Positions 4,478 to 57,328 of a stretch of 64,000 nt of DNA are shown here, piece after piece. Position 1 is the stretch's first letter. Every line of letters begins with the position of its first letter. Under the pieces are notes generated by a model. The model did no database searches. It saw nothing but the letters and a program-made list of their open reading frames with translations, and was not told the DNA's origin. Made by a program: the position numbers and the translations under genes. Location: the NCBI GenBank assembly GCA_934122115.1, contig CAKOVU010000003.1, positions 64,442 to 128,441 on the forward strand, written 5' to 3'. Source of the stretch: an uncultured Clostridia bacterium. GTDB taxonomy: Bacteria > Bacillota > Clostridia > TANB77 > CAG-508.

Positions 4478-4498
4478 GAATATGGAAAGGAAAGAACA

Positions 4499-5815: not shown

Positions 5816-5829
5816 GAAAGGATAAAAAG

Positions 5830-7410: not shown

Positions 7411-7420
7411 TTGAAAAAAT

Positions 7421-7457
7421 ATCTACCTAGAAAATATTTTTAGGTAGATATTTTTTT
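7421..7457 (+). terminator. Rho-independent terminator after the FAD oxidoreductase gene.
   Basis: Inverted repeat ATCTACCTA...TAGGTAGAT followed by a T7 run. Confidence 0.7.
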
Positions 7458-7561
7458 GCAAAATTAGTAAAAAATAGCAACAAAAAAATGACAAAATATG
7501 TTCCTTTTTTACAAGTTTCATGATACAATAAAGCGAGAATAAGACAAAAGGAGAGATACAT

Positions 7562-10393: not shown

Positions 10394-10415
10394 TCATATT
10401 TTAAGAGAGGTAAAA

Positions 10416-11291: not shown

Positions 11292-11313
11292 AATTTAAAG
11301 TGAGGAATAATGT

Positions 11314-12420: not shown

Positions 12421-12421
12421 T

Positions 12422-16528: not shown

Positions 16529-17569
16529 ATGAAATTGTTAATGCATACATGTTGCGCACCATGCAGTGTATTTTGCATAGAAAGTTTAAGAGCAGAAGGG
16601 ATTGAACCAACAGTATATTGGTTCAATCCAAATATACATCCATATTCAGAATATAAGAAACGTAGGGATTGTTTAAAAGATTATACAAAATTAATAAGTG
16701 TACAAGCCATATTTGATGATGAATATGGCTTAGATGCTTTCTGCCAAGAGGCTGTAAAAGATTTGAATACAAGATGTGTGAACTATTGTTATCCTGTAAG
16801 GTTAAGGAAAACATTTGAATATGCAAAAGAACATGGTTATGATGCAGTAACAACCACTTTATTATATAGCATATATCAGAAGCATGATTTTATAAAGAAA
16901 CTTATGGCGGATTTAAGCAAAGAATATGGAATAAAGTTTTTATATAGAGATTTTAGAGTTGGATTCTGGAAGGGACATGAGGAAGCAAAGAATTTACAAT
17001 TATATTTACAGCATTATTGTGGTTGCATTTTCAGCGAAGAAGAATCTGAGTTAAAACGCATAAATTCTATAACAAAGATGCCTGATGGTTTTGAATTTTT
17101 GCCAATAAAACGTTCAATTGTAATAAAAAAGGAAAAAAATAATAAAGAAAAATATTTAGAATTATTGTTAGAGGCTGATCCAAATGAAGACGCAATAAAA
17201 AAATATTTAGAAAAAGGAGACTTGTTTGTATTAGAATATGAAGAAATTCCAGCTTGTGTTGCGGTTGTGGTGCATATAAATAATGAAACAGTGGAACTAA
17301 AAAATCTAGCCACAAAAGAGGAATATAGAGGAAAAGGTTTTGCCAAGAAGATGATAAAGTATTTATCAGATAATTATAAGCAAAAATATAAAAAAATGAT
17401 AGTTGGAACTACAGAAAACAATATTCCATTCTATGTAAAACAAGGTTTTGATAGATATGAAAAAACAATGAAAAATTTCTTTACAGATAATTATGATGAA
17501 GAAATATGGGATGGAAATCTACATTGTATAGATATGTATTATTATTCGAAAGAATTAAAGATTAAGTAA
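16529..17569 (+). CDS. queH: Epoxyqueuosine reductase QueH (DUF208) fused to a C-terminal GNAT acetyltransferase domain.
   Basis: N-terminus 'MKLLMHTCCAPCS' and 'YCGCIFSEEE' are QueH signatures. The C-terminal ~150 aa contain an acetyl-CoA binding motif 'LATKEEYRGKGFAKKMIKYL'. Confidence 0.65.
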   Translation: MKLLMHTCCAPCSVFCIESLRAEGIEPTVYWFNPNIHPYSEYKKRRDCLKDYTKLISVQAIFDDEYGLDAFCQEAVKDLNTRCVNYCYPVRLRKTFEYAKEHGYDAVTTTLLYSIYQKHDFIKKLMADLSKEYGIKFLYRDFRVGFWKGHEEAKNLQLYLQHYCGCIFSEEESELKRINSITKMPDGFEFLPIKRSIVIKKEKNNKEKYLELLLEADPNEDAIKKYLEKGDLFVLEYEEIPACVAVVVHINNETVELKNLATKEEYRGKGFAKKMIKYLSDNYKQKYKKMIVGTTENNIPFYVKQGFDRYEKTMKNFFTDNYDEEIWDGNLHCIDMYYYSKELKIK

Positions 17570-20833: not shown

Positions 20834-21946
20834 ATGGAAGAAAAATCAAAGAAAAAGAAAAAAATACTAATGACGGCTCTTATTGCTGTTATTATAATTT
20901 TAGCTATAGTAGGAGGTATTTTAATAAAAACGAAGATGGATAATAATATTGATAATGGAAAATCAATAGGTAAATTTAATATTGGAAAAAATCAGCAGGT
21001 AGAAATAAAGAAAAATGAAGCAAAAACTGTAAACCTTGTGGATTATGAGAACGGACTAATAAAGATGAAAATTCCAGAGGGATGGAAGGTTGATACAATA
21101 GGTGACTACATTCATTATACTGTAATGGCATATAATCCAGAAGAACCAGAATATCAGTTTTTCTTTAATATGAAAACAGAAGGATATAATAAATCGCAAG
21201 ATGCAAAGGCATTTCAACAGAAATATTATCCAAATTCGATGTTCGCCAAAGCATCAGTAATAGAAGATAAAACGACAGAGGGATTTTACAAGATTTTTAA
21301 TGATTTAGGACCATTAAATAATACAGCAGAATTTACATTCCCAACGCTATCAAACTTTACAGTTATAGAAAAATTAGGAACTGCGGCAATTGGTGGAGAT
21401 ATATTAAGAGCTAGTTTTAAAGATGCAAATGGAAAAGATGGAGAAGGAATATTCACTGCTTATGTTTACGATGCTGGACCATACTATGTAAATGAAAATA
21501 TAGTTTCAGGGAAGAAAATTGATATATACTATTTGAATGTTTATGATACAATGTTTGTTTCTGCCCCAAAAGATAAATTAGTTGATTGGGAAGATGTTCT
21601 AACTCAAATAACGGCTTCATTCGAATTTACAGATACTTTTATAAGCCAATATAACATACAACAAGACGCTGTTATGAAAAACTTCCAAAGTGTAAGGGCA
21701 GTATGCAACCAAACATCGGATATGATAATGTCTTCATGGGAGTCTAGAAGTGCAGCTTATGACAGAATGAGTCAAAAACAGAGCGATGCGACTCTTGGAT
21801 ATGAAAGAGTATACGACACAGATACTGGAGAAATTTACAAAGCATACAATGGTTTTACAGACGACTACCAAGGAAATAGATATCAATCAATAACAGACGA
21901 TATGTATGCCAAACCAACTGATGGATATATAGAAAGAGTATATTAA
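20834..21946 (+). CDS. Hypothetical membrane-anchored protein (N-terminal TM helix, large extracytoplasmic domain).
   Basis: Lys-rich N-terminus plus 'ILMTALIAVIIILAIVGGILI'. RBS AAGGGGGA. Confidence 0.4.
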   Translation: MEEKSKKKKKILMTALIAVIIILAIVGGILIKTKMDNNIDNGKSIGKFNIGKNQQVEIKKNEAKTVNLVDYENGLIKMKIPEGWKVDTIGDYIHYTVMAYNPEEPEYQFFFNMKTEGYNKSQDAKAFQQKYYPNSMFAKASVIEDKTTEGFYKIFNDLGPLNNTAEFTFPTLSNFTVIEKLGTAAIGGDILRASFKDANGKDGEGIFTAYVYDAGPYYVNENIVSGKKIDIYYLNVYDTMFVSAPKDKLVDWEDVLTQITASFEFTDTFISQYNIQQDAVMKNFQSVRAVCNQTSDMIMSSWESRSAAYDRMSQKQSDATLGYERVYDTDTGEIYKAYNGFTDDYQGNRYQSITDDMYAKPTDGYIERVY

Positions 21947-41771: not shown

Positions 41772-43025
41772 CTATAGACTTAAAAAGCTATATCCAGATC
41801 TTATTTTAGAGGATACATTTACTTCAAAAAAGCTATCTTTATATTTATTGAGCCAATCGTAATTATCCCATTCTTGTTTAGTTAAAAAATATTTAATAGC
41901 TTGTTTTCCAAATCCATCAATATCTGAATTAAATTCTTTAGAAGTTTTATATAAATAAGAAGAAATTAATTCTTTAAAATATACATTTATTTTTTCTTCT
42001 AGTTTTTCAGTAGTTTCACTTTTTAAATAATCCTTACCAGGTGTAATAGCTAGCATTCGAACAGATAAATTAACATCAATCTTAATAAAAGGTGTCTCAT
42101 TTACTAATTTAACAGTTCGTTTGGGATTATTCTTTAATTGAATGCTTACATTTATATTTTCAGAATTGCCTTCTGGATCTTCTATTTGTACATTACATGA
42201 ATTTAACTTGCCAGATATTATCATATGACAAATGTTTTCTAAACCATCTAGTTCACCAACTAATTTTCCCCATCTAAAAACAGCAACACCCATGGTCTCC
42301 ACGTGATTGTCAGCGGTAATAGGCGTTTCACCTGCAACATATGAGCTATCTTTATTAATCTGATTTGAAGAAGCATCATATGAATGTGAAGAAGAAATAT
42401 TTACATTCCCTAAAGTTGCTACTGGCTGACTACATGTATCTAAAAGCGAATTTAAAAAATCAATTAATGGTACAGAAGTTGTATAACCAGTGTATTTACT
42501 AGAATTAGGAGCTATTTGATAGTATCTAGCAGAAAATGTTTCTAGTACTGGACTGGACATTTTTAAATAATTGCTTGCAGTGCATTTTGTTATAGTAACA
42601 TTTGCATGAGGACTTACTTGCACATTATCACATAATTCATATATATATAAAGATAAATCTGTTACAGCCAACTCCTCAGAAATAATAATAGCTTTACAAT
42701 GTGATAAATCAATAGCCCTACTAATATAACTATTTAAAAGATTTATTCCACTTTCTATACTTGAACATTCAACAGAAGCTAAAGTAGAAGCTGTAGATTG
42801 AGAAGATGATGAAGAAGCCTCAGAAGAGGAATTATTAGGATTGGCAAGTTGTATAGTAACTTTAAGATTATTATTTGAGCCCACGTCAAGAGCTAGAGCA
42901 ACTACATAAGCTAATTTATCAATACTTTCTGATGAGAATGAACCAGAAATACCAGACCCAATTAAAATTATTATAATTGTAATAATAACAAATATTTTAA
43001 TAGCAATACCATATAATTTTTGCAT
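41772..43025 (-). CDS. Spore germination protein, Ger(x)C family.
   Basis: N-terminal signal/anchor. C-terminal GerAC-domain pattern '...GKQAIKYFLTKQEWDNYDWLNKYKDSFFEVNVSSKIRSGY'. Confidence 0.75.
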   Translation of the reverse strand: MQKLYGIAIKIFVIITIIIILIGSGISGSFSSESIDKLAYVVALALDVGSNNNLKVTIQLANPNNSSSEASSSSSQSTASTLASVECSSIESGINLLNSYISRAIDLSHCKAIIISEELAVTDLSLYIYELCDNVQVSPHANVTITKCTASNYLKMSSPVLETFSARYYQIAPNSSKYTGYTTSVPLIDFLNSLLDTCSQPVATLGNVNISSSHSYDASSNQINKDSSYVAGETPITADNHVETMGVAVFRWGKLVGELDGLENICHMIISGKLNSCNVQIEDPEGNSENINVSIQLKNNPKRTVKLVNETPFIKIDVNLSVRMLAITPGKDYLKSETTEKLEEKINVYFKELISSYLYKTSKEFNSDIDGFGKQAIKYFLTKQEWDNYDWLNKYKDSFFEVNVSSKIRSGYSFLSL

Positions 43026-43028
43026 AAT

Positions 43029-44141
43029 TTAATCCTCCTTTTTATCAGGTAAATGACTTCTCTTAAATTTAATATTTGCTAGTATCAAAATAATAGGAAA
43101 GATTATCAGCATTAAAGGAATTGATACAAATTTATATAAATATTCTTCTAAACGTCTAGCTTGTAACATATTTTGAGGAATCATAGAAATTCCAAATAAT
43201 AAAATACATATTACAATAATTAATAGTTTAGCGTTCTTAATCTTAGTCAGCTTCTGTGAAAATCTCGTTATAAATAGAACCACTAAATTTAAGAAAGTCA
43301 TGTTAGCAATGATACAAACAAATATAAATAAAGATTCTGGATGCTGTATGAAGGTGCCGAAGTCATTATTAGTTATAACAGTATATATACATGAAATATC
43401 TTTTATGGATGTACTAAAACTTAGAGAAAATAATAAACATGCTACAGACAAGAATAGTAGAATGCTAATTATAACAGAAGATATAATGGCTACTGTTTTA
43501 AAATTTTTCTTTTCTGCTAACACAGGCATAATAAAGTATAAGAATGTTAAAGAGTTAAAAGCAAATATATTTGATAAACCACCTATAAAAGTTTCAAAGG
43601 CTCCATATCCCAATATAGGAAAAATCCTTTGCCACACTATATTGGGAAAAGCAGAAGTAAAGGTAATAATTAAGGAGCCAATCATTAATAAAACGATGAA
43701 AACATTAGATTTAAAGATAGCCTTTTCTCCTAATAAATTTGAAACACATGTTGTTATAATAAAGAATATTAACAAATAAATTACATTTGTTTCATAATAG
43801 TAAATATTGTGTATCATCTCAGAAAAATCACGTATTATTAAACTAGCAAACGAAGCTAAGTAGAAAATAATCATTACAGATACTATTATTTTTAAAGTAC
43901 GACCGCCTAAAAATTCAGAAATATCTACTATGTCTGAATTAGAAAAATTTTTAAAAAGCTTAGCTAATAAACACGAGAAAAAGATGGCGATTAAGCTTAA
44001 TATAAGAATATTTATTAAGCATGATGAGCCACAAGATAAAAGAAAATATTCTGGTAAGTTTAAAATCAATTTATTTACAGTGCAAGCAATAATTATGCAT
44101 ACAGCCTCCATTGTAGTTATTTTTGTAATTGTGTTACTCAT
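43029..44141 (-). CDS. Spore germination protein, GerAB family (APC-type integral membrane subunit).
   Basis: 370 aa, about 10 TM segments. Located between the A and C subunits. Confidence 0.7.
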   Translation of the reverse strand: MSNTITKITTMEAVCIIIACTVNKLILNLPEYFLLSCGSSCLINILILSLIAIFFSCLLAKLFKNFSNSDIVDISEFLGGRTLKIIVSVMIIFYLASFASLIIRDFSEMIHNIYYYETNVIYLLIFFIITTCVSNLLGEKAIFKSNVFIVLLMIGSLIITFTSAFPNIVWQRIFPILGYGAFETFIGGLSNIFAFNSLTFLYFIMPVLAEKKNFKTVAIISSVIISILLFLSVACLLFSLSFSTSIKDISCIYTVITNNDFGTFIQHPESLFIFVCIIANMTFLNLVVLFITRFSQKLTKIKNAKLLIIVICILLFGISMIPQNMLQARRLEEYLYKFVSIPLMLIIFPIILILANIKFKRSHLPDKKED

Positions 44142-44162
44142 ATATTAACCTCTTTCTAAAAA

Positions 44163-45932
44163 TTATGATTTATATTTCCAAGACATACTTATATCATCTT
44201 GTTCTTTAGGACGTTTGCTCTTCAAAAATGAGGCACGATTTTCTCTTTTCCAAGCAGCTTTTAAAATTAATCCTCTTCCAAAGTTAGTGTTGTTCATTAT
44301 ATTTGGTTCTATATAGGAAACGCCAAATGATTTTAAACTGCATAAAAACATTAGATGAATAACCATTGCGCTTGCTATACCGAGAAAGCCGGTTATAGCA
44401 CCAAGAATTATATATATAAATCTTGTAATTCTAGCATGAAAGCCCAAGGAAATATCTGGAATGGAAAAAGAGCATATTCCTGTTAAAGATACTATTATTA
44501 TTAAAATTGGACTAACAATGCTTGCGTCAACAGCGGCCTGTCCTAATACCAGTGCGCCTACGATTCCCAGAGTCGGACCTATAGGATTAGGAACTCTTAC
44601 ACTTGCTTCACGAATAAGCTCAAAAGAAAACTCCATTACCAAGATTTCAAAAATAATAGGAAACGGTACGGATTCTCTTGAAGCTATGATTGCAAACAAA
44701 AGTTCTGTAGGAATTAACTCTTGATGAAAATTAACAATTGCCATATATAATCCAGGAAGAAGTACTGCAACAAATAAAGCTACAAAACGTAAAATTCTTA
44801 TAAAATTAGAATATTGATGCTTTATATTATAATCTTCCGGAGAGTTTATGAAATCCATTAAAATTCCAGGAGCAATTAACACATAGGGGCTACCATTTAC
44901 GATTATAACAACTCTACCTTCAAAAATCATATTAGAAGCTCTATCAGGCCTTTCGGTAGATAAAAGTTGTGGAAGAGAAGACCTACCATCATCTTGAATT
45001 AATTGTTCTAATTGACCAGATGAGATGATGTAATCTATATTAAGATTGTTTACTCTATATTTAACTTCCGCAACTAAATCAGAATTTGCAATATTTTTTA
45101 AATAGCATATTGCACAAGGAGTTTTACTTATCTTACCAAGTTCTACAGATTCTATTACTAAATTCTCATTATTAATATATCTTCTTAATAATGATGTGTT
45201 AGTACGTAAATTCTCAGTAAAACCAACCTGAGAACCACGAATAATTATTTCATTATTAGGGGAAGACAAGCCTCTTTTTTCAAAACCTTTTACTTCAATA
45301 TCAAAAGCCACATCTATACTGTCAATAAATAAAGCACAATTTCCAGAATTGATACCTGAAATTAATTCATTAAAATCATTAGTTTTATTTAAAGTGTTTT
45401 GTGGCAATAAACAATCAGATATATATTCCACAATATCAAATTTTTTTACTTTTCGTACTGTTATGTTATTGGTTACAACTTCAGAGATTATTCTATTTTG
45501 ATTACCATCATATGAATTGGCAGTGTTTTTTAACATCAATGGTTTTAGAATAAAATTGTTCATAACATCCTGGTTTATCATACCATCTATATAAACAAGG
45601 AAAGCTTTATATTGCTTATTTCGCGCAGTTAAAATAAACTCTCTAATTTGTATATCTGAATTAATCATACTGTTGTAGCATGTTTTGATGTATTCAAGAT
45701 TGAGACTTAGTACAGGAAATACTTGCTTAGGTTTATCATTATTTATTGTTTGATTATTTAATGTTAAAGCATCTGAGTTTGGATTTTCTTTGTTTATAAT
45801 TGGGTTAGTAGTAGTATCTAATGAAAAATCGTAATCATTATCTTGTGATTCGCTAAATAAATCTTTAAATAAACTTTTTATATAATTAAACATATCTTTT
45901 TCCTCTTTTATAGTTTTGCTTATTATTTCCAA
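44163..45932 (-). CDS. Spore germination protein, GerAA family (A subunit). An alternative start at 45893 (MFNYIK...) has the better RBS.
   Basis: Large soluble N-terminal domain followed by a C-terminal TM region. Adjacent B and C subunits form a gerA-type tricistronic operon. Confidence 0.8.
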   Translation of the reverse strand: MEIISKTIKEEKDMFNYIKSLFKDLFSESQDNDYDFSLDTTTNPIINKENPNSDALTLNNQTINNDKPKQVFPVLSLNLEYIKTCYNSMINSDIQIREFILTARNKQYKAFLVYIDGMINQDVMNNFILKPLMLKNTANSYDGNQNRIISEVVTNNITVRKVKKFDIVEYISDCLLPQNTLNKTNDFNELISGINSGNCALFIDSIDVAFDIEVKGFEKRGLSSPNNEIIIRGSQVGFTENLRTNTSLLRRYINNENLVIESVELGKISKTPCAICYLKNIANSDLVAEVKYRVNNLNIDYIISSGQLEQLIQDDGRSSLPQLLSTERPDRASNMIFEGRVVIIVNGSPYVLIAPGILMDFINSPEDYNIKHQYSNFIRILRFVALFVAVLLPGLYMAIVNFHQELIPTELLFAIIASRESVPFPIIFEILVMEFSFELIREASVRVPNPIGPTLGIVGALVLGQAAVDASIVSPILIIIVSLTGICSFSIPDISLGFHARITRFIYIILGAITGFLGIASAMVIHLMFLCSLKSFGVSYIEPNIMNNTNFGRGLILKAAWKRENRASFLKSKRPKEQDDISMSWKYKS

Positions 45933-46057: not shown

Positions 46058-47536
46058 ATGGAAGATAATCACTTATATCAAGATATAGCTAAAAGAACAG
46101 ATGGTGATATCTATGTTGGAGTTGTAGGCCCTGTTAGAACAGGTAAATCTACTTTTATAAAGAGATTTATGGACTTATTAGTGATTCCTAATATAGATAA
46201 TGAATACAAGAAGGAAAGAGCAAGGGATGAACTACCACAAAGTGCAGGTGGCAGAACTATTATGACTACAGAGCCAAAATTTATTCCTAATGAAGCGGTT
46301 GGGATAACTGTGGGTGATAATATTAAATTGAATGTAAGATTGGTTGATTGTGTTGGATATCTGGTTAATAATGCGATAGGATATCTGGAAGATGAAATGC
46401 CAAGAATGGTAAAAACTCCATGGTCTGATGAAGAGATGCCATTTGAGCAAGCTGCGGAGATAGGAACTAAGAAGGTTATTCAGGAGCATTCTACAATAGG
46501 AATTTTAGTTACTACAGATGGTAGTGTTACTGATATACCAAGAGAGGATTATATAGAAGCGGAAGAAAGAGTTGTAAGGGAATTACAGGAACTTAATAAG
46601 CCTTTTATAATTGTATTAAATTCAGCAGAACCTTACTCTGATTATACACAATCGTTAGCAGCAAAACTTCAAGAAAAGTATTCCACACAGGTAATTCCTA
46701 CAGATTGTGAGAACTTGACAAATGAGAATATAGATGAAATTTTTGGTAAGGTATTATATGAGTTCCCAGTAGAACAAATGAATATTAATTTTCCAAGATG
46801 GGTGGATGGCTTACCAGATGACCATTGGTTAAAGGAAGAAATATGTGATGAGATAAAAAATGCGTTTAAGGATGTAACTATCTTAAAACAGGTAGATGGA
46901 GGAATTAGTAAATTACAAAATACAGAAGTTATTCAAACTACAGTTATAAATGATATACAGCTTGGAACTGGAAGTATAAATATAACAATTAATTTGATGG
47001 ATAATTTATTCTATAAGGTTTTAACAGAGATTTCTGGAGTAGAGATTTCTAATGAGGGAGAATTATTTTCTACAATGATTTCTTTTGCCAATGTGAAGAA
47101 ATCATATGATAAAGTTGCATATGCTTTACAAGAAGTTAAAACTAAGGGATATGGAATTGTTAGCCCAAGTATAGATGAGCTTATTTTAGATGAACCGGAG
47201 ATGGTAAAACAAGGTTCAAGATATGGGGTAAAACTAAAAGCAAGAGCTCCTTCAATACATATGATAAGAGCAGATATAGAAACAGAGGTTTCTCCAATAG
47301 TAGGAAGTGAAAAGCAATCACAAGAATTAGTAGAATACCTTCTTTCGGAATTTGAAAGTGATCCTAAGAAAATATGGGAATCAAATATATTTGGTAAGAG
47401 CTTACATGAGCTTGTAAATGAAGGACTGCAAAATAAGCTTTCTCGTATGCCGGAAGATGCACAAGGTAAATTGCAAGAAACATTGGAAAGAATTGTTAAT
47501 GAGGGAAGTGGAGGATTGATTTGTATAATTCTGTAA
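46058..47536 (+). CDS. spoIVA: Stage IV sporulation protein A (coat morphogenetic ATPase).
   Basis: 'IYVGVVGPVRTGKSTFIKRFMDLLVIPNI' Walker A. 492 aa. Confidence 0.9.
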   Translation: MEDNHLYQDIAKRTDGDIYVGVVGPVRTGKSTFIKRFMDLLVIPNIDNEYKKERARDELPQSAGGRTIMTTEPKFIPNEAVGITVGDNIKLNVRLVDCVGYLVNNAIGYLEDEMPRMVKTPWSDEEMPFEQAAEIGTKKVIQEHSTIGILVTTDGSVTDIPREDYIEAEERVVRELQELNKPFIIVLNSAEPYSDYTQSLAAKLQEKYSTQVIPTDCENLTNENIDEIFGKVLYEFPVEQMNINFPRWVDGLPDDHWLKEEICDEIKNAFKDVTILKQVDGGISKLQNTEVIQTTVINDIQLGTGSINITINLMDNLFYKVLTEISGVEISNEGELFSTMISFANVKKSYDKVAYALQEVKTKGYGIVSPSIDELILDEPEMVKQGSRYGVKLKARAPSIHMIRADIETEVSPIVGSEKQSQELVEYLLSEFESDPKKIWESNIFGKSLHELVNEGLQNKLSRMPEDAQGKLQETLERIVNEGSGGLICIIL

Positions 47537-47593: not shown

Positions 47594-47650
47594 CGATATC
47601 AAAGATATCGTCACTGTCCCTTATAGAAATTCTATAAGGGACTACTTTTA
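47594..47650 (+). terminator. Two consecutive hairpins after spoIVA, the second followed by a T-rich tract.
   Basis: CGATATC-AAA-GATATCG, then GTCCCTTATAGA-AAT-TCTATAAGGGAC, then TACTTTTAT. Confidence 0.55.
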
Positions 47651-47755
47651 TGTAAACGGATAGCTTGATAAGGAAATATGAATATGATAATATATACACA
47701 TATTAAGTTAAAATTAATATTATACAGTAATAAATACATTAGGAGGCAGATAGCA

Positions 47756-49003
47756 ATGCAGAATAAATTAGAACAAGCAATAAACATATTAGAGAAAAAT
47801 AATCAACTACAAGTAGCTAAATTAATAAAAGTATTGAATAAAGAAAAACAAGAAAAATTAGTAAATCAAGTATTATCAATAGATTTTGAACAGTTAAATA
47901 ACTTATATCATAAAGCAACTCAGAAACCGGAAATTCTAGAGAAAAAAATAGAATACATCAAATATGTAGATAAAAACAAATTATCAGAAGAAGAGTTGAA
48001 TTTATACAAGTCAGAGGGAGAAAAAATAATAAAAAATAATCAATATGCTGTAGTTACTATGGCAGGTGGGCAAGGAACTAGATTAGGTCATAAAGGACCA
48101 AAGGGCAGCTTTTTACTTAATGTAAAGCCACATCCTAAATATCTTTTTCAAATACTAGCAGAAGGCCTAATAAAAGCAAATCAAAAGTATAATGTTATTT
48201 TACCTTGGTACATAATGACAAGTACGGAAAACAACGATGAAACCATAAAATTCTTTGAAGATAATAATTATTTTGGTTATGATAAAAATTATATAAAATT
48301 CTTTGAACAGGGAAATTTACCATTAATATTAGAAAATGGCAAATTGGTAATAGATAAAGATTATTCTATAAAATTAGCCTCTGATGGTAATGGAAGCATA
48401 TACAAGGCAATGAGAAAAAATGGAATATTAGACGATATGAGAAAAAGAGGTATAAAGTGGATTTTTATAGGTGCAGTAGATAATGCATTACTAAATATGG
48501 TGGATCCAGTTTTGGTAGGTTTAACCATAGTGCAAGGAAATGAAACAGCTTCTAAATCAATAGCAAAAAAAGATCCAACAGAAAAAGTAGGTGCGTTTTG
48601 TAAAGCAAACGGAGTTCCTGCTGTAATAGAATATAGTGAATTACCTAAAGAAATGGCCCAGCTGAGAGATGAAAATGGAGAATTACTATATGGTGAGGCA
48701 CATATAATGTGCAATTTATTTACACTAGATGCAATAGAAAAAGTTTCAATGCAAGATTTAGAGTATCATGTAGCAAATAAGAAAACAGGATACATGGATG
48801 AAAACAATAATTTTATTGAAGTAACTGAGCCTAATGCATATAAATTTGAAGCATTTATATTTGATGCATTTAATTACTTTGATAGTATTTCTGTTCTAAG
48901 AGGAAAGAGGGAAGAGGACTTTGCTCCAGTAAAAAATAAAGAGGGGAATGATAGCCCTGAAACGGCTATAAAATTGTATAATGATTATCACATGAATGAT
49001 TAA
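47756..49003 (+). CDS. UDP-sugar pyrophosphorylase of the UDPGP (eukaryotic UAP1/AGX-like) family.
   Basis: 'AVVTMAGGQGTRLGHKGPKGSF'. The ATG at 47756 is preceded by AGGAGG. The ORF-track start at 47678 is probably an upstream extension. Confidence 0.7.
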   Translation: MQNKLEQAINILEKNNQLQVAKLIKVLNKEKQEKLVNQVLSIDFEQLNNLYHKATQKPEILEKKIEYIKYVDKNKLSEEELNLYKSEGEKIIKNNQYAVVTMAGGQGTRLGHKGPKGSFLLNVKPHPKYLFQILAEGLIKANQKYNVILPWYIMTSTENNDETIKFFEDNNYFGYDKNYIKFFEQGNLPLILENGKLVIDKDYSIKLASDGNGSIYKAMRKNGILDDMRKRGIKWIFIGAVDNALLNMVDPVLVGLTIVQGNETASKSIAKKDPTEKVGAFCKANGVPAVIEYSELPKEMAQLRDENGELLYGEAHIMCNLFTLDAIEKVSMQDLEYHVANKKTGYMDENNNFIEVTEPNAYKFEAFIFDAFNYFDSISVLRGKREEDFAPVKNKEGNDSPETAIKLYNDYHMND

Positions 49004-49018
49004 TGGAGGTAGATAATT

Positions 49019-50278
49019 ATGAAAAATATAACTGCATTAATAATGGCAGGGAAAAATGATTCACAGATGGTATCTAAGAAAACACAATTTGCTCAAAGTA
49101 TTTATGGAAAAGAAGTTATAAAAAGAGTAGTTGAATCTACAAGAAAAGCAGGAATTGAAGATATTGCAGTAATCGTTGGAAAAGATACAAAACAAGAAAT
49201 TGAACAAATTTTACAAAATAGTGTAAAATACATATATCAAGATGAAGTTTTGGGAACTGGTTATGCAATATTAAAAAGTGTGGATTACTTAAAAGCTAAA
49301 GAAGGAAATGTAATAATATTAAATGGAAACATACCATTGATAAAATCAGAAACAATAAAAAAATTGGCAAAAAAAGCAGAAAAAGAAGAAAATGCAGGAA
49401 CTATTTTGTCGGCTATTTCTAATAATCCAATTGGATATGGAAGAGTAATTAGAGATGTCAATAATATTAAGAAAATTGTAGAAGAATCTGATTTAGATGA
49501 AAAACAAAAGAGTATATTTGAAGTAAATGCTGGTGTTTATGTTTATAATATAAAAGAATTATTAAATGTAATAGATAGATTACAAAAAAATAAAATAGGA
49601 TTGTATTATATTACAGATATAATTGAAATGATGGCAGTACAAGGATTGAAAATAGGAGCTTTATTATTAGAAGATAATACGGAAGTTCTACCAGCAAATA
49701 ATAAAATTCAGTTGGAAATATTAAATAAAATATTACGTATTAGAATAAATACAATGCATATGCAAAATGGAGTTACAATAGAAGATATAAATAGTACATA
49801 TATTTATGATGATGTAAAAATAGGTATGGATACAATTATTAGGCCTAATACTACAATAAAATCTGGAGTTAAAATAGGTGAGGATTGTGATATAGGACCA
49901 AATGCTTACATAAGAGAAAATTGCGTGCTAGCAAATAAAGTAAAAGTTGGAAGCTTTGTAGAAATAAAGAAAGCGGTAATTGATGAAGGCTCTAAAGTTC
50001 CACATTTATCATATATGGGAGACTGCGAGATAGGCAAGAAAGTAAACATAGGCTGTGGAACAATAACATGTAATTATGATGGAGTAAATAAGAATAAAAC
50101 AAAAATTGGAAATGATTGCTTTATAGGTTCAAATGTAAACCTTGTTGCACCTGTAAAAATTGGAGATAATGTATTAGTAGCAGCGGGTTCAACAATAACA
50201 GATGATGTTCCAGCAGATGCATTAGCTATAGCTAGACAAAGACAAATAGTAAAAGAAGAATGGAATAAAAGAAATTAG
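49019..50278 (+). CDS. GlmU-like paralog: divergent nucleotidyltransferase domain plus conserved left-handed beta-helix acetyltransferase domain.
   Basis: C-terminal half almost colinear with GlmU ('RINTMHMQNGVTIED...HLSYMGDCEIG...NLVAPVKIG...AAGSTIT'). The N-terminal P-loop reads 'MAGKNDSQMVSKK' instead of 'AAGxGTRMKS'. Confidence 0.7.
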   Translation: MKNITALIMAGKNDSQMVSKKTQFAQSIYGKEVIKRVVESTRKAGIEDIAVIVGKDTKQEIEQILQNSVKYIYQDEVLGTGYAILKSVDYLKAKEGNVIILNGNIPLIKSETIKKLAKKAEKEENAGTILSAISNNPIGYGRVIRDVNNIKKIVEESDLDEKQKSIFEVNAGVYVYNIKELLNVIDRLQKNKIGLYYITDIIEMMAVQGLKIGALLLEDNTEVLPANNKIQLEILNKILRIRINTMHMQNGVTIEDINSTYIYDDVKIGMDTIIRPNTTIKSGVKIGEDCDIGPNAYIRENCVLANKVKVGSFVEIKKAVIDEGSKVPHLSYMGDCEIGKKVNIGCGTITCNYDGVNKNKTKIGNDCFIGSNVNLVAPVKIGDNVLVAAGSTITDDVPADALAIARQRQIVKEEWNKRN

Positions 50279-50305
50279 AAGACTCTAAATGAGCCTTCTG
50301 TTTTT

Positions 50306-50683
50306 TTATAAAGAGTTATTACCAGGGATAAAATAATCAACTACACCATATATTAAAGCGCCTATTATTGCAGCTACCCATGAAATAGCATAACCAGCAA
50401 CAAAATATTGCGTTACATATAATACGACTGCGGCTAAAACAAATCCTACAAATCCTTTACCGAATGTGCTAGCATGTAATCCTGTAAATTTAGTAATTAA
50501 AAAATCAATTACAGTTAAAACAATAGCAGCGATTATTAAAGACCAAATATTATTTATTGAAAAACCAGGAGTAAAGAAAGCTGTGATAGCTAAAATTACG
50601 GCTGATGTAAGCAATCTCCATAATATTTGACCAAATGTACTGGTATTATCTGTAGTACTTTGGATTTCAACGTTACTACTCAT
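50306..50683 (-). CDS. DUF360 / phage-holin_4-like small membrane protein.
   Basis: 125 aa, four TM segments. Confidence 0.5.
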   Translation of the reverse strand: MSSNVEIQSTTDNTSTFGQILWRLLTSAVILAITAFFTPGFSINNIWSLIIAAIVLTVIDFLITKFTGLHASTFGKGFVGFVLAAVVLYVTQYFVAGYAISWVAAIIGALIYGVVDYFIPGNNSL

Positions 50684-50849
50684 ATGGAACCTCCTATTAA
50701 AAATTAGAGAAAGTACATAAACTTTTTAATATCTATAAAAGTATTATTTACACTTTTTTTATTATTATACATGTATTATAAAATAATGAATAATTAAACG
50801 AAAAAAACTAAAAATAAAAGAAAAATAGAGGTAAAGGAAAGATAGTTTT

Positions 50850-51542
50850 ATGCTAATTATATTTTTTCGTTCAATTATATTATATATAGTAGTTTTAATA
50901 GTAATGAGATTAATGGGAAAGAGAGAAATAGGACAACTTCAACCATTTGAGCTTGCAATATCTATAATGATATCAGAGCTTGCTTCAATTCCTATGACTG
51001 AAGTGGGGATACCAATATCAAATGGTATTGTTCCAATTTTAGGATTATTATTGATGCATTTAGTCATATCTTTCGCAAATATGAAAAGCATAAAAATAAG
51101 AGAGCTAATGTGTGGCAAACCTAGTATATTAATATATCAAGGTAGAATAGATGAAAAAGTGTTAAAAAAAGAAAGGTTTACCTTAAATGAGCTAGAGGAA
51201 AAATTAAGAAGCAATAATATAATGGATATTGGAGATGTAGAATACGCAATTCTAGAAACAAGCGGTGATATATCTGTAATTCAAAAACCAAATAAAAGAA
51301 CAGTAACACCGGAAGACTTAAACATCATGCCGGATTATGAAGGATTATCATACGATTTGGTTATTGATGGAAAGGTATTGGAAGATAATCTTCAAAAAAT
51401 TGGAAAAAGCTATGAATGGCTAAAAGCACAAACAAATAAATTTCAAATGATGCCAGAGGAAGCACTAATAGTAACAATAAATGCAAAGGGAAAAATGTTT
51501 TGTCAGAAGCGAGAAGATTTGAAGAAGAAAGGAAAGAAATAG
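50850..51542 (+). CDS. DUF421 (YetF-like) membrane protein.
   Basis: 'MGKREIGQLQPFELAISIMISELAS' characteristic N-terminus. Confidence 0.7.
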   Translation: MLIIFFRSIILYIVVLIVMRLMGKREIGQLQPFELAISIMISELASIPMTEVGIPISNGIVPILGLLLMHLVISFANMKSIKIRELMCGKPSILIYQGRIDEKVLKKERFTLNELEEKLRSNNIMDIGDVEYAILETSGDISVIQKPNKRTVTPEDLNIMPDYEGLSYDLVIDGKVLEDNLQKIGKSYEWLKAQTNKFQMMPEEALIVTINAKGKMFCQKREDLKKKGKK

Positions 51543-51544
51543 GT

Positions 51545-51943
51545 ATGCAAAAAGAAATGATTATAGTTGTAATTATAATAATTGTAGTGTTGGCTGTGAA
51601 TATAACAACAGATAAATATACAAACAACTGTGTTTCTGCAATAAACCTGAAGCTTGAAGAAATTTGCGATATGGCAAGTGCTAGTTTAGAAGAGGAAAGA
51701 GAAAATAACCAAATGATAGAAAAGATGGATGCATTAAGAGAAGAATGGAGCAATTTTAGCAAAAAATTAGCTTTTTATATTGAACATGATGAAATAGAAA
51801 AAGTTGATACATCCATTGTTGAGATAAATGAATATATAAAACTAGGATTATATGATGAAGCTATTCCTGAAATAAGAAAATGCAGTTTTATATTAGAACA
51901 TATAAAAAACAAGGGAAAATTGCAAGTAATAAACTTATTTTAG
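51545..51943 (+). CDS. Small membrane-anchored protein, possibly DUF4363 (commonly paired with DUF421).
   Basis: N-terminal TM helix 'MIIVVIIIIVVLAV'. Starts 3 nt after the DUF421 stop. The ORF-track start at 51500 overlaps the upstream gene and is less likely. Confidence 0.35.
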   Translation: MQKEMIIVVIIIIVVLAVNITTDKYTNNCVSAINLKLEEICDMASASLEEERENNQMIEKMDALREEWSNFSKKLAFYIEHDEIEKVDTSIVEINEYIKLGLYDEAIPEIRKCSFILEHIKNKGKLQVINLF

Positions 51944-52442: not shown

Positions 52443-52550
52443 TTTTACCTCTTAAGTTATTAATATGTTTCACAATTACATTATAACACACCTAATTTGA
52501 AATATAAATATAATTTGACAAACTAAATTATATAATGTAAAATATTATTT

Positions 52551-52888
52551 GGTAAGTTAAGTGATCGCGTATAGCACGGCCGAAAGGCGGCGTACGAGGA
52601 AAGTCCGGGCTCCATAGAGCAATGATGCTGGATAACGTCCAGTGAGGGAAACCTTAAGGAAAGTGCAACAGAAAATAACCGCCTATGTGGTAAGGATGAA
52701 AAGGCGAGGTAAGAGCTCACCGCCTTTGTGGAGACACAAAGGGTCAGTGTAAACCCCATCTGGAGCAACACCGAGACAAGAAGGCTAAGACTGCTCGTCA
52801 TCTTCTTAATTTGGTGGCTTGAGACATATAGCAATATATGTACTAGATAAATGATCACTCACGACAGAACCCGGCTTATAGGCTTACC
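52551..52888 (+). ncRNA. rnpB: RNase P RNA, class B (Firmicute type).
   Basis: 'GAGGAAAGTCCGGGCTCCATAG' near the 5' end and '...GACAGAACCCGGCTTATAGGCTTACC' at the 3' end, pairing with 5' GGTAAG. A GC-rich island with no plausible protein-coding ORF. Confidence 0.85.
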
Positions 52889-53780
52889 ATTTATAATTTA
52901 ATATTTGTTTCATATCACTTGGTAATTCTGAAGTAATTACCATTTTTTTATTTGTAAGTGGGTTAAAAAATTCTATTTTATAAGCATGCAAAGCTTGCCT
53001 AGCTATAAAAGGTGAAGTATTTCCATACAAACTATCGCCAATAATAGGATGACCAAGATAACTAGTATGAACACGAATTTGATGGGTTCTACCTGTTATT
53101 AAATTTATATCCAAAACTGATAAACTGGTAGGAGAGCTTAATTCTTGTATTACTTTATAATTCGTGATGGCAGAATCACCTAAAGGGTTAACACATCTTT
53201 CAATAATACTATTTTCTTTTCTAGCAATAGGAAAATCTATAATACCTTCTTTAAAATCAAAAATGCCCTCACAAATTGCAATATATTTTTTCTTTAAAAT
53301 TTTGTGTTGCATTTGTTGTGATAATATATTATGAATATATTCATTTTTAGCGAAAATAACAATTCCTGATGTATCTCTATCCAATCTATTTACAGGGCGA
53401 ATTTTTTTATGTAATTTAATATTATCAAAATAAAATCTTACTCCATTTGAAAGACTATCCGCATAGTGCTGCATAGAAGGATGAACTGGTATTCCTGCAG
53501 GTTTATCTAATATTAAAAGCCCTTCATCTTCATATAGAATATTTAATTCCATTTCAGATGGTAAAATATTAGAATTATCTTCTACAAAGTCTATTAATAT
53601 AGTTATTTTATCATTTGGATTTAAAAATCTATCTAAATAAGTAGGCTCTCCATTAAGTAAAATTTTTTGTTCCTTTTTTAATTTTAATATAAGTCTAGCA
53701 GATAAATGAAATCTCTCTTTTAGAACTTGTCTTAAATATATGTAGTTATCTTCATTGATTTTTGTGTATTCTAATATCAT
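52884..53780 (-). CDS. RluA-family 23S rRNA pseudouridine synthase (RluD/YlyB-like).
   Basis: 'HRLDRDTSGIVIFAKN' catalytic Asp motif. An S4-like N-terminus. Confidence 0.85.
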   Translation of the reverse strand: MILEYTKINEDNYIYLRQVLKERFHLSARLILKLKKEQKILLNGEPTYLDRFLNPNDKITILIDFVEDNSNILPSEMELNILYEDEGLLILDKPAGIPVHPSMQHYADSLSNGVRFYFDNIKLHKKIRPVNRLDRDTSGIVIFAKNEYIHNILSQQMQHKILKKKYIAICEGIFDFKEGIIDFPIARKENSIIERCVNPLGDSAITNYKVIQELSSPTSLSVLDINLITGRTHQIRVHTSYLGHPIIGDSLYGNTSPFIARQALHAYKIEFFNPLTNKKMVITSELPSDMKQILNYKW

Positions 53781-53903: not shown

Positions 53904-54908
53904 ATGACTTTTATAGATGCAATGAAAGAAAAGGCTAGAAAAGATATAAAAAATATTGTATTGCCAGAAGCAGACGATGTAAGAGTTTTAAAGGCCACAG
54001 AAATGGTTTTAAATGAAGGTTTTGCTAATATAATATTAATAGGTGATACAGATGAAATTAAAAATCTGGCTAAAGAGAATAATATAAATATCGATGGAGT
54101 TCAAATAATAAATCCATTGACATCAACTAAACTTAGAAAATATTCTGATGATTTATATGAATTAAGAAAAGCAAAAGGAATGACTATTGAGCAGGCACAA
54201 GAACTTTTAAAAACAAATAGCAGATATTTTGCTACAATGATGGTAAAATCTGGAGATGCAGATGGATTTGTTTCAGGAGCAAATCACCCTACATCTGATA
54301 CACTAAGACCAGCATTACAAATTTTAAAAACTGCACCAAATACCAAGTTGGTATCTGCATTTTTTGTAATGGTAGTTCCAGAATGTGATTATGGAGAAAA
54401 TGGAATTTTTGTTTTTGCGGATTGTGGGCTCAATGAATATCCTGATGCAGAAGCATTATCAGAAATAGCAATATCATCAGCAGAAAGCTTTAAAGAATTA
54501 GTAGGAAAAGAACCTAAAGTAGCAATGCTTTCATATTCTACAATGGGAAGTGCACATTCACCATTAACAGAGAAGGTTGTAGAAGCTACGAAATTATTAA
54601 AAAGCAAGAAGCCGGATTTGATATGTGACGGAGAAATACAATTAGATGCAGCTATAATTCCAGAGATAGCGGAAAGAAAAGCACCAAATAGCCCATTAAA
54701 GGGGGAATCTAATATTTTAATATTCCCAGATTTAGATGCTGGAAATATTGGATACAAATTAACTCAAAGATTTGGAAAAGCAGAAGCATATGGGCCTCTA
54801 TGCCAAGGAATTTCTAAAGCTGTAAACGATTTATCTAGAGGTTGTTCAAGCTCTGATATAGCTGGTGTAGTAGCTATAACTGCAGTTCAAGCTCAAAATA
54901 TAAAATAA
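53904..54908 (+). CDS. pta: Phosphate acetyltransferase.
   Basis: 334 aa, near-colinear with clostridial Pta ('IVLPEADDVRVLKA...', 'SRGCSSSDIAGVVAITAVQAQ'). Confidence 0.9.
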   Translation: MTFIDAMKEKARKDIKNIVLPEADDVRVLKATEMVLNEGFANIILIGDTDEIKNLAKENNINIDGVQIINPLTSTKLRKYSDDLYELRKAKGMTIEQAQELLKTNSRYFATMMVKSGDADGFVSGANHPTSDTLRPALQILKTAPNTKLVSAFFVMVVPECDYGENGIFVFADCGLNEYPDAEALSEIAISSAESFKELVGKEPKVAMLSYSTMGSAHSPLTEKVVEATKLLKSKKPDLICDGEIQLDAAIIPEIAERKAPNSPLKGESNILIFPDLDAGNIGYKLTQRFGKAEAYGPLCQGISKAVNDLSRGCSSSDIAGVVAITAVQAQNIK

Positions 54909-54922
54909 AATAGGAGGTAAGT

Positions 54923-56116
54923 ATGAAAATACTAGTACTGAATTGTGGAAGTTCATCTTTAAAATATCAGTTAATTAATATGGAAGATGAAACAGTAATA
55001 GCTAAAGGCTATTTTGAAAGAATTGGTCATTATGATTCTTTTGTTACTCATAAAGTAAATGGTGAAAAATACAGATATGATGTAATTGCTAGAGACCATG
55101 GGGAAGCAATAAAATTCGTATTAAAACAATTTACTGATCCGAAATATCCTGTAATTTCTAGCTTAGACGAAATAACTGCGATAGGTCATAGAGTAGTACA
55201 TGGAGGAGAAAAATTTAAAGAATCAGTTATTGTAAATGAAGATGTGAAAAAGGGAATAGAGGATGCCATCGTATTTGCTCCACTACACAATCCTGCTCAT
55301 TTGCAAGGAATAAAAGCTTGTGAATTAAATTTACCAGGGAAAGTAAATGTAGCAGTTTTTGACACAGCATTTCATCAAACAATGCCAAAAGAGCATTATT
55401 TATATCCAATACCATATGAATATTATGAAAAATATGGTATCAGAAAATATGGAGCTCACGGCACATCTCATAAATATATAGCAAATAGAATAGCAGAATT
55501 ATTGGGGAAGCCAATTGAAGATTTAAAAATTATTAGTTGTCATATTGGTCAAGGTGCAAGCATTTGTGCTATACAAAACGGAAAAAGCGTAGATACTTCC
55601 ATGGGGCTAACGCCATTAGGAGGTGTAGCAATGGGAAGCAGGTCTGGAGATTTGGATCCATCGGTTGTTACATTCTTGATGGAGAAAGAAAATTTAAATC
55701 CAGCTCAAATGGAACATATTTTAAATAAAAAATCTGGTTTATATGCATTATCAGGAATTTCTTCTGATAACAGAGATGTTGAAAGAGCCATTGCACAAGG
55801 TGATCAAAGAGCAATTGATTCTTTAAAAGAATACGATTATATTATTGCTCAATATATAGGAAAATATGCTGTTACAATGAACGGGGTGGATGTTATAACA
55901 TTTACAGCAGGAGTTGGAGAAAAAGGACCTGTTACAAGATCTGATGTATGTAAATACTTAGGATTTATGGGTGTGGAGTTAGATGAAGAAATAAATAATA
56001 CAACAAAAGATACGGAGAAAGATATTTCTAAAGAAAGTTCTAAGGTAAAAGTTTGGGTTGTTCCTACTAACGAAGAGTTAATGATAGCAAGGGAAACAGC
56101 AAATTTAATAAAATAA
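54923..56116 (+). CDS. ackA: Acetate kinase (copy 1).
   Basis: 'MKILVLNCGSSSLKYQL', 397 aa. Confidence 0.95.
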   Translation: MKILVLNCGSSSLKYQLINMEDETVIAKGYFERIGHYDSFVTHKVNGEKYRYDVIARDHGEAIKFVLKQFTDPKYPVISSLDEITAIGHRVVHGGEKFKESVIVNEDVKKGIEDAIVFAPLHNPAHLQGIKACELNLPGKVNVAVFDTAFHQTMPKEHYLYPIPYEYYEKYGIRKYGAHGTSHKYIANRIAELLGKPIEDLKIISCHIGQGASICAIQNGKSVDTSMGLTPLGGVAMGSRSGDLDPSVVTFLMEKENLNPAQMEHILNKKSGLYALSGISSDNRDVERAIAQGDQRAIDSLKEYDYIIAQYIGKYAVTMNGVDVITFTAGVGEKGPVTRSDVCKYLGFMGVELDEEINNTTKDTEKDISKESSKVKVWVVPTNEELMIARETANLIK

Positions 56117-56137
56117 AATTAATAAGGAGAAAAAATA

Positions 56138-57328
56138 ATGAAAATACTAGTTTTAAATTGTGGAAGTTCATCACTAAAATATCAATTAATCAATATGGAT
56201 AATGAAAGAGTTATTGCTAAAGGAAATTTTGAGAGAATAGGAGAGAAAAAATCATTTCTAACACATAAAATTGATGGAAAGAAATTTGTATATAATGAAG
56301 TTGCAATGAATCATGAAGATGCATTGAATTTGATTATGAAAGAATTATTAAATCCAGATCATAAAGCAATTGACAGCCTAAAGGAAATAAATGCTATAGG
56401 GCATAGAATTGTTGGTGGAGGAGAAATTTTTGATAAATCTGTATTAATCGACGAAGAAGCTTTAAAGGGAATTCAAGATTGTGCAAAATTGGCTCCATTA
56501 CATAACCCAGCAGCAATACTAGGAATAAAAGCTTGCCAAAAAGCTATGCCTGGAGTACCGATGGTAGCAGCTTTTGATACTGCATTCCATCAAACAATGC
56601 CAAAGGAAAATTATTTATATCCAATACCTTATGAATATTATGAAAAATATGGAATTAGAAAATATGGAGCTCATGGTACATCACACAAATATGTTGCACA
56701 AAGAGCAGCAAAACTTATGAATAAAAATATAGAAGATTTAAAAATAGTTACTTGCCATTTAGGACAAGGAGCTAGTATATGTGCAGTACAAGGAGGAAAA
56801 AGCGTAGATACTTCAATGGGGTTAACACCATTAGGAGGAATTGCAATGGTTACACGTTCTGGTGACTTAGATCCATCAGTTGTTACAGCTATTATGAAAA
56901 AAGAAAATTTAACCCCTGATGAAATGGAAAGCATTTTAAATAAAAAGTCAGGTCTAACTGCTATGTGCAAATTAGTTCCAGATTTTAGAGAAATAGAAAA
57001 TGCTTCAAATGAAGGAAATCCAGATGCGGTAGTTGCTATAAATAAATTTGTTTCTACTATAGCTCAATATGTAGCAAGATATGCAGCTGTTATGGAAGGA
57101 ATAGATGCAATTGTATTTACTGGGGGAATCGGAGAAAACCAATTCAGAATAAGAAATAAGATTTGCAAGAAATTGAAATTTATGGGTGTGGATTTTGATG
57201 AAGAAAAAAACAATGAATTTAGAGATGAAGGAGAAATCTCGAAGCCAGATTCTAAGGTAAAAGTATTTGTAATACCAACTGATGAGGAAATGGTTATTGC
57301 AAGAGATACATTAAATTTAATTTCTTAA
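56138..57328 (+). CDS. Acetate kinase paralog (copy 2, tandem).
   Basis: 'MKILVLNCGSSSLKYQLINMDNERVIAKGNFERIG'. About 60 to 65 % identical to copy 1 over the full length. Confidence 0.9.
   Translation: MKILVLNCGSSSLKYQLINMDNERVIAKGNFERIGEKKSFLTHKIDGKKFVYNEVAMNHEDALNLIMKELLNPDHKAIDSLKEINAIGHRIVGGGEIFDKSVLIDEEALKGIQDCAKLAPLHNPAAILGIKACQKAMPGVPMVAAFDTAFHQTMPKENYLYPIPYEYYEKYGIRKYGAHGTSHKYVAQRAAKLMNKNIEDLKIVTCHLGQGASICAVQGGKSVDTSMGLTPLGGIAMVTRSGDLDPSVVTAIMKKENLTPDEMESILNKKSGLTAMCKLVPDFREIENASNEGNPDAVVAINKFVSTIAQYVARYAAVMEGIDAIVFTGGIGENQFRIRNKICKKLKFMGVDFDEEKNNEFRDEGEISKPDSKVKVFVIPTDEEMVIARDTLNLIS

Follow-up and report, generated by a model that had tools for sequence, protein, structure and literature searches.

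How does a bacterium complete the synthesis of UDP-N-acetylglucosamine (UDP-GlcNAc) when the uridylyltransferase site of its GlmU has been dismantled? The question is raised by two adjacent genes at 47756-50278 of a 64,000-nucleotide (nt) stretch of contig CAKOVU010000003.1, hereafter the window, which comes from an uncultured, spore-forming gut Clostridium with 29% G+C. The first gene encodes a protein (UAP) resembling eukaryotic UAP1/AGX1 and NagU of Staphylococcus aureus, and the second a GlmU with a degenerate nucleotide-binding loop; 17 contigs from human-gut metagenomes encode identical proteins. We consider it likely that the pair is the housekeeping route for the last two steps, acetylation of glucosamine-1-phosphate (GlcN-1-P) and uridylylation of N-acetylglucosamine-1-phosphate (GlcNAc-1-P), with the NagU-type enzyme displacing the uridylyltransferase of GlmU; within this reading we infer the activities, the lone glmU and the direction of the change. 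The elements that carry the argument are the following (lengths in amino acids, aa).

47756..49003, plus strand: UAP-like gene, predicted NagU/UAP1-type GlcNAc-1-P uridylyltransferase (415 aa; PF01704)
48059..48106, plus strand: nucleotide-binding signature MAGGQGTRLGHKGPKG, in which Arg109 corresponds to NagU Arg106 and AGX1 Arg115
48830..48937, plus strand: PNAYKFEAFIFD (Phe-x-Phe motif of UAP1) and FAPVKN, whose Lys corresponds to AGX1 Lys407 in the alignment
49019..50278, plus strand: GlmU ortholog (419 aa), uridylyltransferase site dismantled, GlcN-1-P acetyltransferase site intact
49019..49702, plus strand: its N-terminal nucleotidyltransferase-fold domain (N-domain), residues 1-228
49040..49096, plus strand: degenerate fingerprint IMAGKNDSQMVSKKTQFAQ, with Arg replaced by Gln16 and Lys by Gln23
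49328..49330, plus strand: Asn104 where GlmU has its Mg2+-ligand Asp (E. coli Asp105), G-D becoming G-N at 103-104
49601..49603, plus strand: Leu195 where the G-E-Y-Y motif has Glu (GEYY to GLYY) in the alignment
49766..50278, plus strand: left-handed beta-helix acetyltransferase domain (C-domain) and C-terminal arm, with ten active-site equivalents present, including His329, Tyr332 and Asn352

Active sites of the two proteins

The first protein matches PF01704 (E=2e-46; 158.9 bits, cut-off 22), and its best solved relatives by sequence are UAP1/AGX1 (E ~1e-74), followed by the UDP-glucose pyrophosphorylases (1e-15) and UDP-sugar pyrophosphorylases (1e-5). The UAP1/AGX-type motif that an earlier note on this DNA had recognized is thus present, and GGQGTRLG, PKG, DGNG, VDN, EYSE, F-x-F-D and the C-terminal K-N are all kept. 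Lys407 is a catalytic residue of AGX1, and Arg109 and FAPVKN are conserved throughout the UAPs of the clade. The eukaryotic C-terminal domain of ~90 aa is absent (415 vs. ~505 aa), and two sugar-pocket positions, as read from the alignment, differ from AGX1 (Asn327 to His and His331 to Asn). With S. aureus NagU (database protein P0391) the window UAP shares 37% identity over 96% of NagU (residues 5-385 of 395; E=1e-80), which lies above the threshold for NagU homologues (>30% identity, >90% coverage) set in a preprint (Fong et al., 24 June 2026, bioRxiv 10.64898/2026.06.23.733835). NagU Glu26, a residue of the DacA interface, aligns with window Lys31, beside Glu30, in a poorly conserved N-terminal helix, and the surroundings of the locus showed no dacA gene. 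Altogether, the sequence of the first gene identifies its product as a predicted UAP1/AGX-type uridylyltransferase with an intact active site, which would use GlcNAc-1-P selectively.

The second protein was described in the earlier note as colinear with GlmU and as having kept its acetyltransferase beta-helix almost intact, and both statements hold. It scores 427.8 bits with TIGR01173 (cut-off 366.85) and 458.6 with NF010934 (cut-off 450); the TIGR01173 match is split into two stretches by a ~35-aa deletion in the beta-helix, and otherwise the protein is colinear with solved GlmUs. The same deletion is common to those relatives that have canonical motifs and no UAP, and it is therefore unrelated to the decay of the site. 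All ten acetyltransferase residues are present (equivalents of Arg333, Lys351, His363, Tyr366, Asn377, Asn386, Lys392, Ser405, Ala423 and Arg440), and each of them is found in 119 of the 119 database representatives of the degenerate clade on which our residue counts are based.

The degenerate P-loop reported in the earlier note proved to be real. In the alignment with solved GlmUs, both UTP-contacting catalytic residues, the Arg (E. coli Arg18, S. aureus Arg15) and the Lys (E. coli Lys25), are Gln, and the loop reads MAGKNDSQMVSKKTQFAQ where the enzymes of Streptococcus pneumoniae and S. aureus have LAAGKGTRMKSxxxKVLH; over its whole length the canonical LAAGKGTRMKSxxPKVLH has become the fingerprint given in the list above. 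A 2022 review (PMC10087520) calls the fingerprint L-x2-G-x-G-T-x-M-x4-P-K strictly conserved, and the window protein does not match it: it has I-M-A-G-K-N-D-S-Q-M-V-S-K-K-T-Q, with other residues at the second Gly, the Thr and the P-K (G-T-R to D-S-Q), so that an acidic residue stands where the fingerprint Gly contacts the phosphate. Moreover, the degeneracy goes beyond what the earlier note had seen, since the changes of Asp to Asn104, GEYY to GLYY and GVNDR to LPANNK come in addition. Of the Mg2+ ligands of GlmU, Asp105 and Asn227 in E. coli numbering, the equivalent of Asn227 is kept and that of Asp105 is lost. The uracil and sugar contacts Gln76, Gly81-Thr82, Glu154, Asn169 and Thr199 are all retained, as they are in 107-119 of the 119 relatives, and so is the Thr-Asp contact.

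These derived states are fixed in the clade (fingerprint Gly to Asp in 118/119, metal-ligand Asp to Asn in 119/119, Glu of GEYY to Leu in 118/119), so that neither chance nor sequencing error explains the degeneracy, and the metal-ligand Asp is present in all UAP-less relatives and ordinary GlmUs examined. The sub-lineage of the window has decayed further, with Arg changed to Gln in six of the 119 and Lys to Gln in 19. The N-domain also diverges faster than the C-domain, 2.2-fold in pairs of UAP-bearing loci and 1.3-fold in UAP-less pairs, and when the two groups are compared with each other the N-domains are 48% and the C-domains 76% identical. This ratio was relied on because synonymous divergence (dS) is saturated (~1) for almost all pairs, which leaves omega rough.

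A structure model of the window GlmU, computed as a monomer with 27 sequences, is of moderate quality, with a predicted local distance difference test (pLDDT) value of 73.6. Its N-domain core, residues ~30-220, is predicted to be folded (pLDDT 72-93), and confidence is low precisely in the degenerate loop; the top fold matches are all GlmU, with a global TM score of ~0.5 owing to the domain orientation of the monomer. We judge the N-domain to be catalytically dead yet folded and under purifying selection. The residue states thus support the acetyltransferase site as the only credible one in this protein, and its activity is a prediction.

The glmU slot among relatives

The ~419-aa GlmU lineage is narrow and confined to metagenome-assembled genomes (MAGs) of uncultured Clostridia from human, sheep, rabbit and chicken guts, with 53-99% identity; GlmUs outside it are ordinary, of ~455-470 aa, and at most 45% identical. 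Eleven loci with an adjacent UAP (the window, L005-L008, L086, L087 and L171-L174) all carry a degenerate GlmU. Sixteen loci without a UAP in their flanks (L009-L018, L042, L062, L088-L090 and L092) encode a short GlmU with the canonical AAGKGTRMKS...K, GD, GEYY and GVNDR. Both groups share the same downstream neighbours, a holin_4_2 gene on the minus strand, DUF421 and DUF4363. In L086, L087 and L171 the UAP lies exactly between a divergent spoIVA and glmU, and the UAP-less L009, L013, L088 and L089 have the same spoIVA/glmU arrangement with no UAP. The pair also remains adjacent in the unrelated contexts of L172 and L173, where the stop codon of the first gene overlaps or abuts the start codon of the second.

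Two side observations belong here. In the window three genes, for a minus-strand holin_4_2-like membrane protein, for the YetF-like DUF421 and for DUF4363, occupy 50306-51943, and the trio is kept beside the glmU slot clade-wide. In the UAP-less MAG of L013 (3812-11260) the gerA genes are fragmented into several open reading frames (ORFs), and the N-domain of GlmU, canonical in its P-loop, has diverged to an unusual degree (NPTGYGR reads KMIPYGK); assembly errors or incipient decay are possible.

Because of the shared slot neighbours and its grouping with the canonical short GlmUs, the window GlmU is the positional ortholog of the canonical glmU of the clade and not an extra paralog. The earlier note's idea that the gene is a paralog and that the organism's genuine glmU lies elsewhere is not supported. 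Neither the 64-kb window nor any relative's flanks of ±4-10 kb contain a second glmU, and the window gene is probably the organism's only one. The note had itself allowed that its reading would fall if this were the only glmU and if the divergent loop were typical of the clade: the first is probably so, and the second is true of the UAP-bearing sub-clade only, not of the whole clade.

The slot takes further forms in other relatives. In L166-L168 the UAP is followed in the same slot by a stand-alone beta-helix protein of 221 aa (e.g., L166:5001-6946 and L168:2391-4457), and in L085 (8001-9932) a single protein of 643 aa, P0371, fuses a UAP with a beta-helix acetyltransferase. This partner is of the ST0452/archaeal-GlmU type (TIGR03992, E=4e-40; PDB 2GGO, E=8e-20) and ~25-30% identical to the GlmU beta-helix. 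P0371 was considered as a simple fusion of UAP with the C-domain of GlmU, a possibility rejected on the archaeal type of its beta-helix, and its domain make-up indicates a bifunctional analogue of GlmU put together from parts of other origin. In L170 (5001-6356) a UAP homologue of 451 aa occupies the slot by itself, and no beta-helix acetyltransferase lies within 5 kb of it. The UAPs with ST0452-type partners nest inside those that partner a degenerate GlmU (neighbour-joining tree, no bootstrap), which suggests that the state seen in the window is the older one. That in the glmU slot UAP is repeatedly found paired or fused with an enzyme acetylating GlcN-1-P makes a strong circumstantial case for a two-protein unit doing the job of GlmU.

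Proposed route, alternatives and genomic setting

The observations on gene structure, residue states, synteny and co-distribution can be brought together in the following way. GlmM would supply GlcN-1-P, the beta-helix domain of GlmU would acetylate it with acetyl-CoA to GlcNAc-1-P, and the NagU/UAP1-type enzyme would convert GlcNAc-1-P together with UTP to UDP-GlcNAc and pyrophosphate. The N-domain of GlmU would be a pseudo-enzyme that has lost its phosphate- and metal-binding residues (fingerprint Gly-Thr, Arg, Lys and Asp) and kept its fold. As for its history, the ancestor of this gut Clostridia sub-clade would have had an ordinary short glmU in the slot; a NagU-type gene would have been inserted directly upstream, the redundant uridylyltransferase site would then have decayed, and in some descendants GlmU would have been replaced by a minimal archaeal-type acetyltransferase, separate or fused to the UAP. 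A division of labour between acetyltransferase and uridylyltransferase had been proposed in the earlier note, and the comparative data favour it by inference, since each protein has one credible site, the genes lie close enough for linked translation (15-nt spacer with GGAGG) and remain neighbours where the genes around them differ (L172, L173), and the UAP is paired or fused with another acetyltransferase in relatives.

Several points weigh against this housekeeping route. The Arg is kept in 108 of the 119 members of the degenerate clade and the Lys in 96, and residual activity is conceivable there. The degenerate GlmUs form one clade (neighbour-joining tree, no bootstrap), so that the correlation of UAP with degeneracy records one evolutionary event and not eleven, and the 11-versus-16 co-distribution was accordingly rejected as statistics. 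All our trees are of this neighbour-joining kind without bootstrap support. The UAP-less locus L091 (5517-6779) has a degenerate P-loop (GKSESM) and NGQIY for GEYY, with the metal-ligand GD kept. The scan of the genome collection used query-specific peptide patterns, which cannot show the absence of a second glmU. Finally, omega of the N-domain is ~0.1 in the closest pairs, where dS is saturated, so that 'dead' may mean 'repurposed'. In L091, a gene for 487 aa lies between the GlmU gene and the holin-like gene; considered as a hidden uridylyltransferase, it was discarded on its sequence, no family search being made, as it looks membrane-anchored and unrelated and has no resemblance to UAP.

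Repurposing of the N-domain is possible, although we propose it only tentatively. Since the uracil and GlcNAc contacts are kept, only phosphate and metal residues are lost and purifying selection acts, the domain could bind UDP-GlcNAc or GlcNAc-1-P. It might then serve as a feedback sensor for either compound that throttles the acetyltransferase, much as GMPPA does for GMPPB, or as a dock for the NagU-type enzyme that channels GlcNAc-1-P. If this were true, the clade would record a stepwise dismantling, from canonical enzyme to pseudo-domain, to minimal acetyltransferase and to new fusion.

Among the alternatives to the housekeeping route, it is unlikely that GlmU keeps a weak uridylyltransferase activity, as GlmU-Ser169 of S. 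aureus does, and that UAP only boosts the flux. The situation in S. aureus is exactly such, most clade members keep the Arg, the Lys, the Asn169 equivalent and the uracil and sugar contacts, and purifying selection acts on the N-domain. In the window protein, however, neither Arg nor Lys nor the Mg-ligand Asp is left, and the acidic residue stands at the phosphate-contacting Gly; in the work on S. aureus the single change R15A already serves as the inactive control (bioRxiv 10.64898/2026.06.23.733835), the loss of the metal-ligand Asp is fixed in the degenerate clade (119/119), and relatives with the archaeal-type partner do without the N-domain entirely.

A second alternative, that of the earlier note, is a sporulation-specific accessory pair, in which a GlmU paralog and the UAP would make a UDP-HexNAc for glycans of the spore coat, cortex or exosporium while an ordinary glmU lay elsewhere. 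The pair does lie beside spoIVA and the gerA operon, and spoIVA is adjacent and divergent in L086, L087 and L171. The features that bear on transcription are these.

41772-45932, minus strand: gerA operon, upstream of the pair
46058-47536: spoIVA (TIGR02836, 760 bits), upstream of the pair
47616..47642, plus strand: intrinsic terminator 3' of spoIVA, with a 12-bp stem and a T-run
47665..47693, plus strand: sigma-70-like promoter candidate, TTGATA-17-TAATAT with a TG extension (a consensus match only, of a kind frequent in AT-rich DNA)
47741..47746, plus strand: Shine-Dalgarno sequence AGGAGG, 9 nt 5' of the ATG at 47756
49004..49018, plus strand: intergenic spacer of 15 nt, with GGAGG and no terminator
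50277..50299, no strand assigned: bidirectional terminator hairpin with T-runs on both sides, which would end both the operon and the convergent holin_4_2-like gene

With a terminator and a promoter candidate on the 5' side, a 15-nt spacer that has no terminator and a closing hairpin on the 3' side, the two genes at 47756-50278 are predicted to form one operon, a transcription unit of their own insulated from spoIVA. A longer UAP ORF from 47678 would start within the promoter-like site, and gene callers on the identical contigs chose the 415-aa version. A by-eye reading of 47643-47755 for sigma-E and sigma-K sites gave partial matches, which are meaningless at this G+C content. The strong terminator and the sigma-70-like promoter stand between spoIVA and the pair. 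Moreover, spoIVA equally adjoins the canonical glmU of the UAP-less L009, L013, L088 and L089, so that this neighbourhood is older than the UAP and carries no information particular to it; beside the pair, most relatives have spoIVA in divergent orientation or not at all, the pair or its counterparts occurring without spoIVA in L006-L008, L172-L174, L085 and L166-L170. As the window gene is in addition the positional ortholog of the canonical glmU and not an extra copy, we hold a sporulation-phase route to be quite improbable, and this part of the earlier note is not supported.

Finally, the pair might make another nucleotide sugar, for instance UDP-GalNAc from galactosamine-1-phosphate (GalN-1-P), for a surface glycan instead of the peptidoglycan precursor. 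Eukaryotic AGX/UAP enzymes accept GalNAc-1-P. The GlmU of E. coli acetylates GalN-1-P, less efficiently (PMC10087520), the window opens with a large glycosyltransferase cluster and has a GalE-like epimerase, and two sugar-pocket positions are, as said above, unlike those of AGX1. This alternative is nevertheless very improbable, given that the substrate residues of the acetyltransferase are identical to those in the canonical GlmUs of UAP-less relatives, that the gene sits in the housekeeping glmU slot, that S. aureus NagU makes UDP-GlcNAc and that the glycosyltransferase cluster lies >34 kb away.

Elsewhere in the window, positions 21-13366 hold that large surface-glycan cluster, with GT1, GT2 and GT4 glycosyltransferases, one of them a GT4-GT1-GT2 fusion of 732 aa, a PMT_2 protein, an amine-oxidase-like flavoprotein, a WecA/MraY-type GT4 and, at 7562-10393, a protein of 943 aa with six ricin-B lectin repeats and SH3_3. 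Two coding-strand ORFs, 14420-16513 (697 aa) and 20834-21946 (370 aa), have no Pfam match at 1e-5, and 16529-17569 encodes an epoxyqueuosine reductase QueH with a fused C-terminal GNAT acetyltransferase domain. Downstream of the pair, an RNase P RNA (class A, 279 bits) occupies 52549-52894 on the plus strand, for which reason the minus-strand ORF of 111 aa at 52523-52858 is spurious. In 53904-57328, pta precedes a tandem pair of acetate kinase genes at 54923-56116 and 56138-57328, both annotated as PF00871 on the identical contig.

Comparison with known systems

GlmU has been regarded as universally essential and as an antibacterial target, and it was the June 2026 preprint that overturned this essentiality for S. 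aureus and, from cultured reference genomes, gave hints of broader variation. In the gut Clostridia, a series within a single slot, from canonical GlmU to UAP plus pseudo-GlmU, then to UAP plus archaeal-type acetyltransferase and to the fusion, makes in-situ displacement of half an enzyme a testable process. Inhibitors of the GlmU uridylyltransferase site, it suggests, would not hit these organisms. There is also a consequence for annotation, because a 'GlmU' label in MAGs of gut Clostridia can promise more function than is there: the window protein narrowly exceeds two NCBIfam equivalog cut-offs for GlmU, and P0028, a relative of 65% identity, has at NCBI only the name 'NTP transferase domain-containing protein', so that automated names for the clade are inconsistent and may wrongly imply bifunctionality.

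With the canonical GlmUs (E. coli, S. pneumoniae; TIGR01173) the window protein shares the two domains, the trimer-type beta-helix and identical acetyltransferase residues, whereas it lacks the pyrophosphorylase fingerprint and the metal ligand and has a beta-helix shorter by ~35 aa. The window UAP has the catalytic motifs of eukaryotic UAP1/AGX1, which differ in their extra C-terminal domain; it is predicted to act downstream of a GlcN-1-P acetyltransferase, whereas the eukaryotic order is GNA1/AGM1. GMPPA/GMPPB, found among the fold matches of the GlmU model, offer an analogy only: there too an inactive nucleotidyltransferase-fold module is kept beside an active enzyme, although in another lineage and for another sugar nucleotide, and a sensor role for the GlmU pseudo-domain is speculative. 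As for ST0452 and the archaeal-type GlmU (TIGR03992; PDB 2GGO, 5Z09), the relatives L166-L168 and L085 pair the same UAP with such a beta-helix; this acetyltransferase is absent from the window, and in archaea it is fused to an active nucleotidyltransferase domain of its own.

The closest parallel is S. aureus. According to the preprint (bioRxiv 10.64898/2026.06.23.733835), the UAP1-like NagU makes most of the cellular UDP-GlcNAc and converts GlcNAc-1-P and not Glc-1-P, and S. aureus GlmU, weakened by the change of Asn169 to Ser (kcat/Km 6-fold lower), is redundant with NagU. NagU homologues are reported there from Staphylococcaceae, from bacteria of the Planctomycetes-Verrucomicrobia-Chlamydiae (PVC) group and 'sporadically in Clostridia', often with a truncated or missing GlmU; the sections of it that were read do not mention the clade intermediates, the archaeal-type acetyltransferase partner or the fusion. 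In both systems a monofunctional UAP1-like enzyme stands beside a full-length GlmU with a defective uridylyltransferase domain. The S. aureus defect is the single change of Asn169 to Ser, whereas the window GlmU keeps Asn169 and loses the fingerprint, Arg, Lys and Mg-ligand Asp; scored by GlmU length and position 169, as in the preprint, it would pass as normal, since it is full-length and has the Asn. Other differences are the Lys in place of NagU Glu26 at the DacA interface, the location of both window genes in one predicted operon in the ancestral glmU slot, and an apparently independent origin in a narrow clade of uncultured gut Clostridia. The principle is thus already known from S. aureus, and the Clostridia case is a more extreme form of it, with apparent evolutionary intermediates.

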